Source of the DNA: Escherichia phage EJP2
Length of the DNA stretch: 64,000 nucleotides
Sequence record: OQ411014.1
Reading direction: 5' to 3' (one strand)
Under the pieces are notes generated by a model. That model saw only the letters and a list, made by a program, of their open reading frames with translations. It was not told the origin of the DNA and searched no databases. The first letter of the stretch is position 1. Every line of letters starts with the position of its first letter. Both the position numbers and the translations under genes were made by a program. Of this stretch, positions 35,879 to 62,716 are shown piece by piece.

Positions 35879-36736
35879 ATGCGTTTGAGATTGGTTATTT
35901 CCAGTGCAGATGATCAGTTGTGGGTTAGGCCAGCGGACAGTACTAGACGTGTTCGTCTACCATCAGTTCATGGTCATACCTTTATTGTTGAGAACAAACA
36001 ATCAACATTAGAAGAAGCCTTTCGTCTATTCATTGGTGATTATGAATGTAAGCCATTCAATGACTATCATTGCACTTATGAAGTTGTTGATATTCCTGAT
36101 GAGTACATGTTCCAGTTGGCACTATTAGGCGTTCATGAGATGGACTTCCTTGTGTACAATAACGTCACTAAGAAAATGGCAATTTGTTCAGCAGTACATT
36201 TGGCTGTTGAATATACAATGGCAACTAATTCCAAGGTAGGTTATAACCAATCTTCTTATCGTAATAGTACTGCTACTACTAACGATGTTGTATTCCAGTG
36301 GGAGTACAAAAGTGACGAGTGGAAGACTAAGAACGATGATGTTACTGTTCATACAGTACTGGATAGTACTTATGATAATATCTATCAGTACATTGAGCCT
36401 AACCTAATGGAATGGGCTTGTAGGATGTACAGTAACATTGCTGATACTTTACGTCCTAGAGTTTATGGGTTCAAGAACTGGAAAAGTAAGATTGATACAT
36501 CTGATGAACCAGTAGCGTATGAAAAGTCCTACCCGTACTATAACTTCAGTGATTTATATTTCCTGTTCAATCAGTACTGCAACGATGAAGCGATGTTTTT
36601 GTACGCACAGGATGTAATCTCCGATTCAGCAATTGAGATATTGCGTGAACTGTACTGTCATTGTCAGTTTATCAGTACTAACATTCAGGTCGGCAAGGAT
36701 TACATAAAATTCTGTGATGAAAGAAGATCACGATAA
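35879..36736 (+). CDS. FQ-motif-like hypothetical protein (285 aa)
   Basis: Motif DEYMFQLALLGVHE; RBS GAGGAT. Confidence 0.6.
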   Translation: MRLRLVISSADDQLWVRPADSTRRVRLPSVHGHTFIVENKQSTLEEAFRLFIGDYECKPFNDYHCTYEVVDIPDEYMFQLALLGVHEMDFLVYNNVTKKMAICSAVHLAVEYTMATNSKVGYNQSSYRNSTATTNDVVFQWEYKSDEWKTKNDDVTVHTVLDSTYDNIYQYIEPNLMEWACRMYSNIADTLRPRVYGFKNWKSKIDTSDEPVAYEKSYPYYNFSDLYFLFNQYCNDEAMFLYAQDVISDSAIEILRELYCHCQFISTNIQVGKDYIKFCDERRSR

Positions 36737-37476
36737 TTTGAGCATTCATAAAAAAATGTGATATAATTAGTACTACGGATGGTTAGCTATCCGTATTTTA
36801 AATTTGAATGACCAGTACTACATACTGGTACGTTTTAACCCTGATTCACTCGAAAATGTAGAGGACAGTTGAGTACGCATTCAAGTACGTTCAGCAGAAG
36901 AAACCCGTTAGGTGTAGGCATAGTTTGTACCTCCCACGGCAATGTGGCTGATTAAACCATGAAGAGTAATACGATGACTCATGGCTTGCTTATGGCATGA
37001 TAGACATATAAGGATCGCTCCTTACCAAAATGTATAAGGGAATCTTATAAATTTTTGTAGGACTGATTAGAGGCTTACCCTTGATCCGTCCAAAATTTGA
37101 AGATACAGTACAGTACTGTTTATGTGGTAATGTATTGATGCGTGCTAAGACCACGACCGTTGCATAGAAACGCGATAGGAAGAAACAGGGCAACCCGCTT
37201 CCGTTCTTAATAGAAATTCGTAACATAAAATGATGACACATACCAGCGTCAAACTTTGTTCTTCCCTCCCTGTGGGGGGATGAAAATGAATCTACAAAAC
37301 CTCGTCAAATAATAATAAGAAAGTACTAAATCAATTAGAACGAACGCTAGTGAGTGATAATTGATTTAGTAACAGTAACGCTTCGCTAGAAGTGTTACTC
37401 GTTGTTTAAGAATAAAATAACTTAGTGAGTTTTGGTTCTTTTGTTGTTCACTAAGTCCCTATAGAGAGAATATTAG

Positions 37477-37998
37477 ATGCCAGTGAAATATAAATCCCTT
37501 GATGGTGTTGTGAAGTACAAAGATCAAATGACTGAACAGGAATTACAAGAGTTCAGTGGGTACAAAATCGAGGGCAGTGCGGCACGTATTTCATACATTG
37601 AAGAGTACAAAGACGGAGATTTACTAGGGAAAATTATCCTTAGAATGACAAAAGCCCCAATCATATTTCGGGTAGTATACAAGGGATATAATGAAATTCG
37701 GTACAATACTGGAAGTGTTTCATCTAGATATTGCAGTAATGGTGATGTTTTTTGTGGTGAAATGCTGAGATATGATATGAATGGGAAGCTACAGGTTCGG
37801 GACTTTTTGAATCTAGGCAAGAACGTAACTGATGATATTGTTACTGAATTTGGTATCTCTGATATACTACAGCATGAATTTACAGAAGAAGAGTTATTCC
37901 GACTCTATATGAAATACGATTCAGGATTTAGATTCGTATCGGAATATAATAGAACTCCTGAACACTTCGATTCAGTACTGAAGGCGTGTTTGGAATAA
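37477..37998 (+). CDS. FQ-motif-like hypothetical protein (173 aa)
   Basis: Motif TEEELFRLYMKYD; RBS AGAGAGAAT. Confidence 0.6.
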   Translation: MPVKYKSLDGVVKYKDQMTEQELQEFSGYKIEGSAARISYIEEYKDGDLLGKIILRMTKAPIIFRVVYKGYNEIRYNTGSVSSRYCSNGDVFCGEMLRYDMNGKLQVRDFLNLGKNVTDDIVTEFGISDILQHEFTEEELFRLYMKYDSGFRFVSEYNRTPEHFDSVLKACLE

Positions 37999-38013
37999 TA
38001 GGATATACAATTC

Positions 38014-38532
38014 ATGGATGATAAAAAATCAAAGATGGATATACACTTTTCATCTAAAGCTCAAACTTGGAATACTCCAAGAGATTTATGGAATAAAATA
38101 AATGCAGTATGGAAGTTCACTCTAGATGCTGCGTGTTTAGAAAATAGTGCCTTGTGCGAAAAGTACTTCACTCCTGAAGACGATTCATTAGAACAGGACT
38201 GGGGTGATAACATAGTATGGCTTAACCCACCCTATAACGACCTCAAGACTTGGCTATCGAAGGCAGTACAGGAATATAAGAAAGGCTCTACAGTTGTCAT
38301 TCTGGTCCCTTCTAGGACGGATACAAAGGCATTCCAGGACTATGCTTCTAAAGAATGTTCGTGTATTTGTTTTATTAAGGGAAGACTCAAGTTCTTTGAT
38401 CCAGCTAGACCACCTGATGCGAGGGCAGACCCAGCACCATTCCCTAGCTGTTTGATAGTACTGGATGATGATCTTACACAAGAGAAAATCGATTTTCTAA
38501 AAACTCTAGGTCAGGTAATGAAGAATGTCTAA
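38014..38532 (+). CDS. dam: DNA N6-adenine methyltransferase, small phage Dam family
   Basis: Catalytic NPPY in WLNPPYNDL; N-terminal HFSS..WNTP and C-terminal PFPS motifs typical of the ~170-aa phage Dam family. Confidence 0.8.
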   Translation: MDDKKSKMDIHFSSKAQTWNTPRDLWNKINAVWKFTLDAACLENSALCEKYFTPEDDSLEQDWGDNIVWLNPPYNDLKTWLSKAVQEYKKGSTVVILVPSRTDTKAFQDYASKECSCICFIKGRLKFFDPARPPDARADPAPFPSCLIVLDDDLTQEKIDFLKTLGQVMKNV

Positions 38533-39064
38533 ACGCTGTGTCTTTATGTTCGGCAGAATGAACCCGTGCCACCTCGGACACGGGAAAGTATTTGAAAAAG
38601 CACTACAACTAAAGGATAATGAAACTGATGTGAAGTTGTTCCTTAGTGCTTCGTTTGATCCTAAAAAGAATCCACTACCAAGAGAAGTTCGTCAGTACTA
38701 CATATCTGAGTTCTTCCCTGAAATAAAAGATTCTATACAAGATACAAACATAAACAATTTATTTGATATAATGAAATCACTTGATACTTATTATAGTGAT
38801 GTAATATTCGTAGGTGGTTCAGACAGGGCGAGTTCCTTCCAAGAACTACTACTGAAGTACAATAACAAACAGTACTCATTCGATTCTATCAGTACTGTAC
38901 TAGCTGGAACATCAAGAGAAGAATCTATGTTCAGTTCTACTCTAATGCGTAATGCAGTACAGAAGGACGATTTCAGTACTTTCAAGATATGTCTCCCTGG
39001 GGATAATGAATACTTGAAGTACGATATGTTCGCTGGTGTAAAGAAGTACATGAAAAATATTTGA
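38525..39064 (+). CDS. nucleotidyltransferase with HxGH motif (cytidylyltransferase-like superfamily)
   Basis: N-terminal FGRMNPCHLGHGKVF (HxGH signature); substrate not assignable. Confidence 0.55.
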   Translation: MSKRCVFMFGRMNPCHLGHGKVFEKALQLKDNETDVKLFLSASFDPKKNPLPREVRQYYISEFFPEIKDSIQDTNINNLFDIMKSLDTYYSDVIFVGGSDRASSFQELLLKYNNKQYSFDSISTVLAGTSREESMFSSTLMRNAVQKDDFSTFKICLPGDNEYLKYDMFAGVKKYMKNI

Positions 39065-60527: not shown

Positions 60528-60530
60528 AAA

Positions 60531-60557
60531 AAGGAGCCATATGGCTCCTTTTCTTTT
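60531..60557 (+). terminator. rho-independent terminator
   Basis: Perfect palindrome AAGGAGCCAT/ATGGCTCCTT followed by T-rich tract. Confidence 0.65.
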
Positions 60558-60661
60558 AGAAAACAATTTAATATCTGGATAATCATTTCAGTCCTTTAAC
60601 ATAATCCCACTGCGGCGGGATATTGGTTTGACATATCAAATTATCCCTAAATGTATTAATT

Positions 60662-61081
60662 TTATTCGTCATCTTTGTTGACAAAATCCAAATCTAGTAC
60701 ACTAGGTGGTGGTACATTACAAAAATATAAATCCCACGGTTTGTAGATTGATTCACCTGAACTTAACTTAATTTTGTGCGTTTGAAATGAAGTAACAAAT
60801 GCTTGATCTATTCGCATAAAAAATGTATTCTTACCAAGCAATGTAGACAGTACTGAATCAGATGCACTTGTGTCCAAGTACTGACCATCTTTATCAGTAT
60901 ATGTCAATCTGATAAAGCTGAAAATATTACCATCAGTGTCAACTAAATCAAAGGTGTTATCAGAGCGTTGTCTGAAAATATTGATGTTGTTTTTGATTAC
61001 ACCATTAATGTTTGCAACTGGGACACAGAATCCACCAATACTAAAAGGTAGTTCACCTCTACCTGCAATCACTTTTGCCAT
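60662..61081 (-). CDS. hypothetical protein, paralog of N-terminal domain of 61920-62576 (139 aa)
   Basis: Minus-strand ORF with RBS AAGGAT; shared N-terminal pattern RG-LPF-I-G...QRS..FDL. Confidence 0.6.
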   Translation of the reverse strand: MAKVIAGRGELPFSIGGFCVPVANINGVIKNNINIFRQRSDNTFDLVDTDGNIFSFIRLTYTDKDGQYLDTSASDSVLSTLLGKNTFFMRIDQAFVTSFQTHKIKLSSGESIYKPWDLYFCNVPPPSVLDLDFVNKDDE

Positions 61082-61238
61082 ACTATATCCTTTTATAAAA
61101 AACTGGTCATAAAATGACCTACATAATATTTATGTTACTTGTTCATTTTTTGTACAGCTAATGCTAAATAAATTTATATTGACACTGATAAGCAAACATG
61201 CTAGAGTAATCATCTTACACATTCATTGTAGAGGGTAT

Positions 61239-61919: not shown

Positions 61920-62576
61920 TTACGCCCCCAAAATAGTAACATTACATTGTGCAGTAAAATTACCATCAACACTAGTTGCTGTTATAATAGCATTCCCAGC
62001 CAACAAACCAGTGACCAGACCAGAATCAGAAACTGAAGCTACTGTTGGTTCGGAAGATTCCCACAGTACTGATTGGTTTGTAGCATCCTCTGGTGTGAAA
62101 ATTGGCGTGAGTTGGTCAGTTTCACCTGTCTGAATAGAAGATGTTACTTTATTCAATGCAAGACCAGTAACATACACTGAACGATCACGTTGACTTGCAT
62201 AAGAATTAAGATAAAATGATGAACCATCGCCTAGGATGATTTTATTTAAGAATAGTTTTATTGCAAAACCGACCAGTTCATCTTTTTCTGGATCATATAC
62301 CTTAATACAAAATTTACCAGGGTCAAGTTTAGCAGCAAGTTCTTCATCGGTATCACTTAGCAATAACGGTTGTTTGTTCTTATCCAAAGCTGTTATTTGA
62401 AGAAATTCATATAGTGAATCACCAGTTTTGGATTGCAAGTCAAACATGATAGTACTTCTCTGTTTTGATATATTAATAGTAGTTAGTTCTGTACCATCTT
62501 TCAATACGGCAGCGTTGACATTTATACCCGAAATATCGAACGGAAATTGGTCGCGGCGAGCAATTGGTTTACCCAT
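61920..62576 (-). CDS. hypothetical protein with C-terminal bacterial Ig-like (Big_2-like) domain (218 aa)
   Basis: Strong RBS AAGGAGG; C-terminal TGLALN...VLWESSEP..ATSVDGNF pattern typical of Ig-like group 2 domains. Confidence 0.65.
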   Translation of the reverse strand: MGKPIARRDQFPFDISGINVNAAVLKDGTELTTINISKQRSTIMFDLQSKTGDSLYEFLQITALDKNKQPLLLSDTDEELAAKLDPGKFCIKVYDPEKDELVGFAIKLFLNKIILGDGSSFYLNSYASQRDRSVYVTGLALNKVTSSIQTGETDQLTPIFTPEDATNQSVLWESSEPTVASVSDSGLVTGLLAGNAIITATSVDGNFTAQCNVTILGA

Positions 62577-62633
62577 TGTAACCTCCTTATAGTTTACAAT
62601 TTTAAATATTTATCCATAATGTGCTAAAAAAAC

Positions 62634-62663
62634 TTGCACATTCCAAGATAATACTGATATAAT
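62634..62663 (+). promoter_or_regulatory. sigma70-like promoter
   Basis: -35 TTGCAC 62634-62639, 18 nt, -10 TATAAT 62658-62663. Confidence 0.45.
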
Positions 62664-62716
62664 AGACTCATCCAACGCGAAGTTGGTGTAAACAAACTAC
62701 TAAGAGGACTTAGACA

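Follow-up and report, generated by a model that had tools for sequence, protein, structure and literature searches.

In Escherichia phage EJP2 (OQ411014.1), we analyzed a stretch of 64,000 nucleotides (nt), hereafter the window, in which the open reading frames (ORFs) at 35879–36736 and 37477–37998 are separated by a gap of 740 bp (36737–37476). The gap, noted earlier in a sequence-only reading of this DNA, is the longest + strand interval of the 64-kb window that is free of ORFs, whether the minimum length is set at 40 or at 60 amino acids (aa), on a strand that carries 78 of the 82 window ORFs of at least 120 aa. Downstream, the island described in that reading was found in place, with a Dam gene at 38014–38532 and a cytidylyltransferase-like gene at 38525–39064. 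Every relative examined has the same arrangement: two hypothetical proteins of ~260–285 aa are encoded upstream of the gap, and a 173-aa protein, Dam and the cytidylyltransferase-like protein downstream. Because the same gap lies between the same genes in all these relatives, a recent recombination scar is ruled out, and the proposal that the gap is a recombination junction marking module acquisition finds no support, the gap and both neighbors being syntenic in every related genus examined. In contrast, the proposal of a long structured RNA is strongly supported by a promoter, a terminator, covariation, two pseudoknots and the lack of a coding signal. We are nearly certain that a large structured non-coding RNA of ~630 nt, with a conserved core of ~520 nt, is encoded in the gap. 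This core, which fills most of the gap, the promoter at 36738–36767 and the homologs elsewhere were all absent from the sequence-only reading.

The region matches only jumbo myophages of the Rak2/121Q/GAP32-like group, with Erwinia phage Hallingskeid the closest. The ~520-nt core aligns at 70–88% DNA identity in all Rak2-like genera, so that the conservation in relatives on which the earlier proposal had been made to depend is present, whereas both flanking coding sequences (CDSs) lack DNA-level alignment. When 35879–38532 was used as the query, relatives aligned over ~36750/36840–37355 at 71–82% identity and again over Dam at 68–73%, and the two flanking hypothetical genes gave no alignment. 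In a ten-genome alignment, invariant runs of 10–25 bases are separated by indel-rich segments. No three-base periodicity was found in this region (variable columns by phase, 73/80/81; p = 0.80), the indels of the gap are not multiples of three, and no ORF is conserved in any frame across the homologs, the longest open frames of which differ. The dismissal of the minus-strand ORF at 36990–37241 in the earlier reading is supported: even the closest relative fails to keep it, and none of the frames stays open throughout the homologs. A candidate small peptide following GGGGGGAUG, with its AUG past the G run, was rejected because a 1-nt indel shifts its frame and a second start codon is unconserved; as the same indel moves the conserved 3′ block between frames, this block is not a conserved peptide. 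Small 'hypothetical protein' CDSs have been deposited over the RNA, on either strand, in Hallingskeid (L001, 2430–3164), Yen9-04 (L009, 630–1111, g047/g048), GAP32 (L005, 2789–2902, GAP32_503A), SD-1_S14 (L011, 505–1192) and RaK2 (L149, 1533–1739, ORF245). These CDSs are unconserved between genomes and are probably spurious.

For structural analysis, a conserved-pattern scan of IMG/VR followed by a profile search yielded a training set of 37 distinct full-length copies, each located on a jumbo-phage contig. Some 16 of the 54 loci of the first pattern scan, and one locus of a later scan (L150), had no profile match and were discarded as chance. RNAalifold applied to the 37 homologs gave 69 pairs, of which 39 had undergone compensatory changes on both sides, and a separate covariation scan added two pseudoknots, resulting in a final model of 76 base pairs in 17 helices, the pseudoknots included. 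Standard pairs are formed in 97.3% of the cells of this model, compared with 39–43% when the partner is slid by 1–3 columns. Both sides have changed in 46 of the 76 pairs (11–18 when slid), the covariation score is 0.489 (0.06–0.10 when slid), and the observed values were reached by none of 500 shuffles. In 25 held-out sequences, each less than 85% identical to any training sequence, 96.1% of the pairs are kept versus 38–41% with slid partners. G-U/U-G pairs number 186 against 17 A-C/C-A, which identifies the + strand as the folding strand, and the minimum free energy of the window RNA has a z-score of −4.66. Long unpaired stretches are invariant across the family.

The elements of the RNA and its flanks are collected in Table 1, in which the variable arms were modeled by constrained folding only. 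The first pseudoknot (PK1) is 100% Watson-Crick at all six positions, and its sequence comes in nine or more versions, one being the CUUGAAU:AUUCAAG of RaK2. The second (PK2) contains the stretch that is best conserved in the family, GACCGUUG..GAAAC..CAACCCGCUU; its GCAAC strand is located within the loop of a hairpin, GGAAG/CUUCC (37178–37182/37198–37202), and its closing pair 496:525 is CG in 62, UA in 16 and AU in 3 of 81 sequences. The long-range closing helix UGA:UCA is tentative, as it is invariant in 81 sequences and so beyond the reach of a covariation test. A longer register for it, GAUGAG:CUCGUC, was rejected, being contradicted by uncompensated variation. A loop motif, ACGAACG(N)UAGUGAG, is common to the jumbo-phage copies and the bacterial copies described below and is carried on differing stems. 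Some paralogs, such as L051, L065 and L035, though not the window copy, have a second AGUACAAU..GUUGUAUCUAAAAUUC module inserted in another helix. The paralog extras fall at columns 549–583 and 630–662 of alignment A3, and in many paralogs a terminator-like hairpin with U6 precedes the C-run/G-run hairpin and the 3′ block; together, these insertions suggest modular growth and possibly two RNA isoforms.

Table 1 Features of the RNA gene and its flanks in the EJP2 window (paired numbers joined by a colon in the last column are alignment columns)
Feature	Coordinates	Strand	Evidence or remark
−35-like hexamer TTGAGC	36738..36743	+	Promoter scan; homologs mostly TG(A/G)(A/G)AC
Extended −10, TGaTATAAT	36759..36767	+	10/12 consensus matches with TG; invariant in alignment A1
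Perfect 9-bp hairpin and U run	36774..36799	+	At or just after the predicted start; only in copies at locus A
Variable 5′ hairpin ACCAGUA/UACUGGU after conserved AAnyCUG box	36811..36829	+	All copies, with differing sequences; constrained folding
Helices 36841–36843/36866–36868 and 36849–36851/36861–36863, closing the GAAAAUGUA loop	36841..36868	+	5/6 pairs change on both sides
UGA, tentative long-range closing helix with UCA 37305–37307	36870..36872	+	RNAalifold
Hairpin GUA/UAC	36873..36888	+	Alignment A3 pair 136:149 is UA 20, CG 9, AU 8
Domain closed by UCAGC/GCUGA (36891–36895/36947–36951), enclosing CCGU/ACGG (36905–36908/36936–36939), a variable arm and the invariant GAAACCCGU and CGGCAAUGYGGC strands	36891..36951	+	100% pairing; 154:250 is GC 21, CG 14, UA 2
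Variable-sequence hairpin CCAUGA/UUAUGG	36957..36995	+	6/6 pairs covary, with up to 4 pair types per position
Invariant block GAUAGACAUAUAAGG..CCUUACC..UAAGGGA	36998..37041	+	Helices 37009–37012/37021–37024 and 37025–37026/37038–37039
Long variable arm with conserved CCGUCCAAAAUUUGA strand at its end	37042..37105	+	Alignment, RNAalifold, constrained folding; module present a second time elsewhere in some paralogs
Hairpin with loop 37120–37125 (UUAUGU) as PK1 5′ strand	37106..37137	+	9/10 stem pairs covary
Hairpin CGUG/CACG	37141..37155	+	3/4 pairs covary
H-type pseudoknot PK2, GUUGC 37159–37163 : GCAAC 37190–37194	37159..37202	+	Covariation
Helix CGCGA/UCGUA around the PK2 hairpin, and helix UCU/AGA (37205–37207/37212–37214)	37171..37222	+	506:594 is CG 20, UA 11, AU 4; 508:592 is CG 18, UA 15, AU 4
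ACAUAA, PK1 3′ strand, pairs with 37120–37125	37223..37228	+	6/6 pairs covary
Pyrimidine-run/G6-run hairpin CUCCC..GGGGG	37262..37281	+	99.5% paired; only G-C to G-U changes; G run invariant
Conserved 3′ block GAUGAAA..CAAAnCnCGUCA	37281..37307	+	Alignment, RNAalifold
3′ hairpin with conserved apical loop GAACGAACGCUAGUGAG	37326..37369	+	Downstream of the core
11-bp hairpin (37374–37399) and U-rich tail, likely terminator	37374..37408	+	Equivalent in relatives: GGAACAUC..GAUGUUCC UUGUAU
Hairpin CUUAGUGA..UCACUAAG and ribosome-binding region of the downstream gene	37421..37476	+	Relatives carry a hairpin here too, with another sequence

Transcription signals predicted from the sequence delimit an RNA of roughly 630 nt, ~36774–37408. 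The predicted promoter is of the sigma-70 type and combines TTGAGC, an 18-nt spacer and TATAAT with an extended −10 TG. All 37 homologs contain TGnTATA(A/C)T, and in all 37 a TG(A/G)(A/G)AC box is located ~17 nt upstream. Judged by these motifs, the promoters of the RNA gene belong to the '−35 TGAAACG' class reported for phages CBB and GAP32; in CBB, promoters with the TGAAAC box are mostly found ahead of DNA-synthesis genes (PMC5259590). Terminator-like hairpins are enriched in the gap (4 versus 0.6 ± 0.9 in shuffles), and each of the three perfect hairpins listed in the sequence-only reading was located. The first, TACGGATGG..CCATCCGTA at 36774–36795, belongs to the hairpin at 36774–36799, the stem sequence of which varies among relatives while its pairing is kept. 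In the Munch and GAP32 annotations it is listed as terminating the genes before it, and it probably serves both as the end of that operon and as a 5′ hairpin for the RNA. AGTAAC..GTTACT, at 37374–37399, is the stem of the likely intrinsic terminator, which would set the 3′ end of the RNA. The last, CTTAGTGA..TCACTAAG at 37421–37456, probably is not part of the RNA. In relatives, a −10 element resembling TTGTATAAT overlaps the terminator of the RNA upstream of the 173-aa gene; with the hairpin that precedes the ribosome-binding site there, this suggests that the 173-aa gene may have its own promoter and a structured 5′ untranslated region. The sole minus-strand promoter-like site in the promoter scan, at 37514–37487, is outside the RNA. 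Elsewhere in the window, 60528–61160 and 62134–62716 rank next in length among + strand intervals that lack an ORF of 60 aa or more, and may simply contain genes of the minus strand.

The RNA family is absent from Rfam 15 and undescribed in the open-access literature that we searched by topic, phage name and conserved sequence strings. The covariance-model scan called for in the sequence-only reading returned no match to the gap: at the gathering score there were no Rfam 15 matches in the whole window, whether to GOLLD, ROOL, OLE, HEARO, RNase P, tmRNA, group I/II introns, 6S, riboswitches, small ribozymes or any other family, and at E ≤ 10 only chance snoRNA and sRNA matches far below threshold, with no riboswitch family among the matches. 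Eleven diverse family members gave no Rfam 15 match inside the core, and in nine bacterial loci the only matches, to TPP and STnc450, were unrelated and lay elsewhere. ARAGORN found no tRNA or tmRNA gene in the window. Two leads to known ribozymes were pursued and rejected. A hammerhead ribozyme, suggested by GAUGAG..CGAA, needs CUGAUGA and GAAA, whereas the window has GUUGAG..CGUU, the core is unconserved, and the 'GAA' positions covary within helix 153–157:247–251. An RNase P lead, taken from the pattern ACAG..AACCCGCUU, had no covariance-model support.

Neither blastn nor the nhmmer profile detected a second copy in the window, which thus holds one. Related genomes carry four or five diverged copies each, at orthologous loci that have differing neighbors and are all retained across genera, and each copy has its own promoter. 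Identity between paralogs is ~65–75%, and some orthologs are closer (94% between GAP32 and CBB at one locus). One paralog lies beside a gene for a gp46-like recombination endonuclease and is convergent with a gene of the T4 baseplate family; others are found upstream of an ADP-ribosylglycohydrolase gene and, in RaK2, after a sigma-factor gene. Across at least six different jumbo-phage contexts and the bacterial one, the genes that follow the RNA bear no relation to each other from locus to locus, and several copies have a convergent gene next to them, so that the shared or functionally related downstream gene that would mark most members of a riboswitch or leader family is not seen. The copies of five-copy genomes are nearly evenly spaced, at ~53–84 kb: they lie at ~35, 99, 177, 261 and 341 kb in GAP32 (JN882285, 359 kb; gaps 64/79/84/79/53 kb), at ~41, 108, 188, 269 and 332 kb in a Hallingskeid-like contig (IMGVR_UViG_3300012988_000001, 366 kb; gaps 66/80/81/63/75 kb) and at ~30, 93, 174, 259 and 335 kb in BF (357 kb). 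With five points placed at random, a smallest gap of this size would occur with P = 0.005 in GAP32 and P = 0.0004 in the Hallingskeid-like contig, values that, given the synteny of the five-copy genomes, describe in effect one retained ancestral arrangement and not independent observations. The five copies of GAP32 and BF with a strand read are all on the + strand. In 121Q (Asteriusvirus), there are four copies with less even spacing. As the family searches relied on exact patterns and nhmmer, more distant members may exist.

Full-length homologs (E 1e-83 to 1e-97) were also found in nine records by a pattern scan of one genome per species. The records comprise Enterobacterales isolate genomes and metagenome-assembled genomes (MAGs), and one short contig binned as Clostridium. 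The copy on this contig (L074; DPOH01000171.1, 2.8 kb, labeled Clostridium sp. MAG) is almost identical to the enterobacterial prophage type, and the contig is therefore probably mis-binned. Among 5,426 complete E. coli genomes, two carry the RNA, unannotated, in a 1.4-kb 'empty' stretch of an island by ffs. In E. coli LR-29-1 (L076; NZ_AP027515, ~3.473–3.484 Mb), the island adjoins ffs and its integrase is disrupted by IS3. Most of these loci and ~10 metagenome loci share one gene order: an integrase, the RNA, a convergent cI-like S24 repressor, a Ner-like helix-turn-helix protein, a 286-aa membrane protein and an LprI-like protein. The integrases are interchangeable, of the large serine or the tyrosine type, and no repressor ORF was called beside the RNA in three isolate loci (L071–L073) and the E. 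coli island. Cargo varies, with Kiwa KwaB in L085 and DUF4326, DUF488 and a dual-OB protein in the E. coli island. Bacterial copies keep a TGAAA(C/T)-17-TATACT promoter, and their TGnCTATACT presumably resembles sigma-S-type −10 elements. The most constant bacterial neighbor, the 286-aa protein, has no homolog in 50,697 phage records; since the RNA is nonetheless present in unrelated elements, it moves without an obvious protein partner.

For the function of the RNA, we cautiously favor a free-standing, fold-dependent and trans-acting molecule that works with host factors. Host RNA polymerase would make a discrete RNA, with the timing set by the TGAAAC-box promoter class of the phage, and the RNA would act through its three-dimensional fold as a ribozyme, as a scaffold or decoy for host factors, or as an RNA-only assembly of the GOLLD/ROOL type. 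No element-encoded protein partner would be needed, since the same RNA occurs alone in virulent jumbo phages and in small integrative elements. This reading draws on the invariant unpaired blocks, the pseudoknots, the promoter and terminator of its own, the unrelated or convergent downstream genes and the lack of a traveling partner; invariant unpaired blocks together with pseudoknots are typical of large bacterial RNAs that depend on their fold. Several observations weigh against it. Five diverged paralogs are kept at orthologous, co-oriented and nearly even positions, which a trans-acting RNA maintained for dosage would not predict and which points to a possible dependence on position. Short U tracts make the terminators weak, and many paralogs have an internal hairpin with U6 upstream of conserved 3′ elements. 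In addition, the test for a protein partner covered one neighbor family, that of the 286-aa protein.

The main rival explanation, also named in the sequence-only reading, is a cis-acting role in replication. Each copy may mark an origin, at which the fold of a transcript made by host RNA polymerase and the G6 run would promote a persistent RNA-DNA hybrid that primes the leading strand, in the manner of ColE1 RNA II or of the R-loops at T4 oriF and oriG. We regard this as unlikely, and as similarly doubtful the broader proposal of a position-dependent class of ~550–650-nt pseudoknotted pre-primer or origin-organizer RNAs, in which the five even copies would be the origins of Rak2-like phages and the integrative elements would replicate by host factors alone. 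The co-orientation and near-even spacing of the five copies, the retention of all orthologous loci across genera and the tendency of the TGAAAC-box class to precede DNA-synthesis genes in CBB (PMC5259590) are in line with an origin, as are the movement of the RNA without a protein partner and the fact that no replication gene was recognized in the bacterial elements seen. T4 offers a precedent: at least five origins fire early, and oriF and oriG consist of a promoter and a downstream unwinding element that act through an R-loop (PMC3016281). However, T4 origins need only ~100 bp and share no common motif, and their R-loops form without a specific sequence (PMC3016281), whereas here unpaired nucleotides and pseudoknots are strongly conserved. 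The cumulative GC and AT skews rise monotonically through 37 kb, with no inflection at the locus in this check, for which the sequence-only reading had called; in T4, strand composition or transcription direction shifts at oriE, oriF and oriG, though not at oriA or oriC. A fall in GC content to 0.32–0.36 at 37200–37500 is compatible both with the AT-rich unwinding element of a T4-type origin and with the usual composition of intergenic DNA here. The RNA is followed by a terminator, the promoter scan found no antisense promoter of the RNA I type, the spacing statistic amounts to a single ancestral arrangement, and the four Asteriusvirus copies are less evenly spaced.

An RNA that remains with the polymerase transcribing it, or sends it a signal, could control in cis the read-through into the DNA beyond, in the way of processive antitermination by HK022 put or of an exceptionally large leader of the riboswitch type. 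Such a transcriptional element would account for the promoter directly upstream, for the terminator-like hairpins within and after the RNA (among them the hairpin with U6 in many paralogs), for the co-oriented genes downstream at locus A and for regular spacing on a genome transcribed almost wholly in one direction. We consider it quite improbable, as the downstream genes are unrelated and several are convergent (in jumbo phages a gene for the baseplate, in the bacterial elements cI), no riboswitch family matches, and known antiterminator RNAs measure ~70–120 nt. Covariation and G-T wobble would also be produced by + strand DNA that folds when single-stranded, for example as a priming or packaging signal. 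This is very improbable, given that every copy is preceded by a promoter at constant distance and followed by a terminator, and that tertiary folds of RNA typically show pseudoknots and invariant nucleotides at junctions. As for one or more missed protein-coding genes, or decaying junk at a recombination junction, the small CDSs called here by the annotators of Hallingskeid, Yen9-04, GAP32, SD-1_S14 and RaK2 are the evidence in favor, and we give the idea almost no credence: it is already contradicted by the missing periodicity, the lack of a conserved ORF and the indel lengths, and by a region that is better conserved than its neighbors and syntenic across genera.

Structured RNAs longer than ~400 nt with several pseudoknots are rare, and to our knowledge most of those with known function are ribozymes or cores of ribonucleoprotein machines. 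The present family contains more than 80 distinct sequences with very strong covariation. Hosts of the phages that carry it are E. coli, Salmonella, Klebsiella, Erwinia, Serratia, Yersinia, Cronobacter and Pectobacterium, and it is also present in chromosomal integrative elements of enterobacteria, so that the RNA is open to study in the best available genetic system. If the trans-acting reading is right, a new large RNA is exchanged between unrelated mobile elements as a protein-free module; if the copies instead act in cis at origins, they would explain how replication of 350-kb phage genomes starts. For several deposited genomes, the finding also corrects the annotation of small 'hypothetical protein' CDSs over the RNA gene.

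Among well-characterized systems, ColE1 RNA II is a structured transcript of ~550 nt that host RNA polymerase initiates at a strong promoter; it requires no element-encoded protein and contains a G-rich segment. The RNA described here resembles it in size, in being structured, in its predicted promoter, in its apparent independence of an element-encoded protein and in the G-rich segment, but it has no antisense promoter of the RNA I type and no sequence similarity to RNA II, and its pseudoknotted core with invariant loops exceeds the features of RNA II known to us. RNase P RNA, group I introns and tmRNA are of the same size class and share pseudoknots and conserved unpaired nucleotides with it, but no covariance-model or ARAGORN match and no tRNA-like end was seen; its own promoter and intergenic position indicate that it is not an intron. 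With T4 oriF and oriG, it has in common the T4 superfamily, dispersed sites, a sigma-70-type −10 element with a phage-specific upstream box and AT-rich DNA downstream, the GC content of which is nevertheless usual for intergenic DNA here, whereas it is set apart by a 520-nt RNA fold that is conserved between genera and present in temperate elements as well. The distantly related Pseudomonas jumbo phage PA5oct has four ORF-free transcribed regions of 236–619 nt, supported by RNA-seq, two of them very abundant (PMC7318152). By profile search, these regions, PA5oct ncRNA001–004, are not homologous to this RNA, and no structure has been reported for them. GOLLD, ROOL and OLE are RNA-only homo-oligomers (PMC12286853). 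Whereas GOLLD and ROOL are found in Lactobacillales, rumen bacteria and their phages, the hosts here are Enterobacterales, and the RNA differs further in showing no homology to them in sequence or structure, as neither of their Rfam models matches even at E ≤ 10, in its four to five diverged copies per genome and in not lying beside tRNA genes, of which the 64-kb window has none. Like GOLLD and ROOL, it is longer than 500 nt, has many helices and pseudoknots, and is carried by phages and prophages independently of any obligatory neighboring protein gene.

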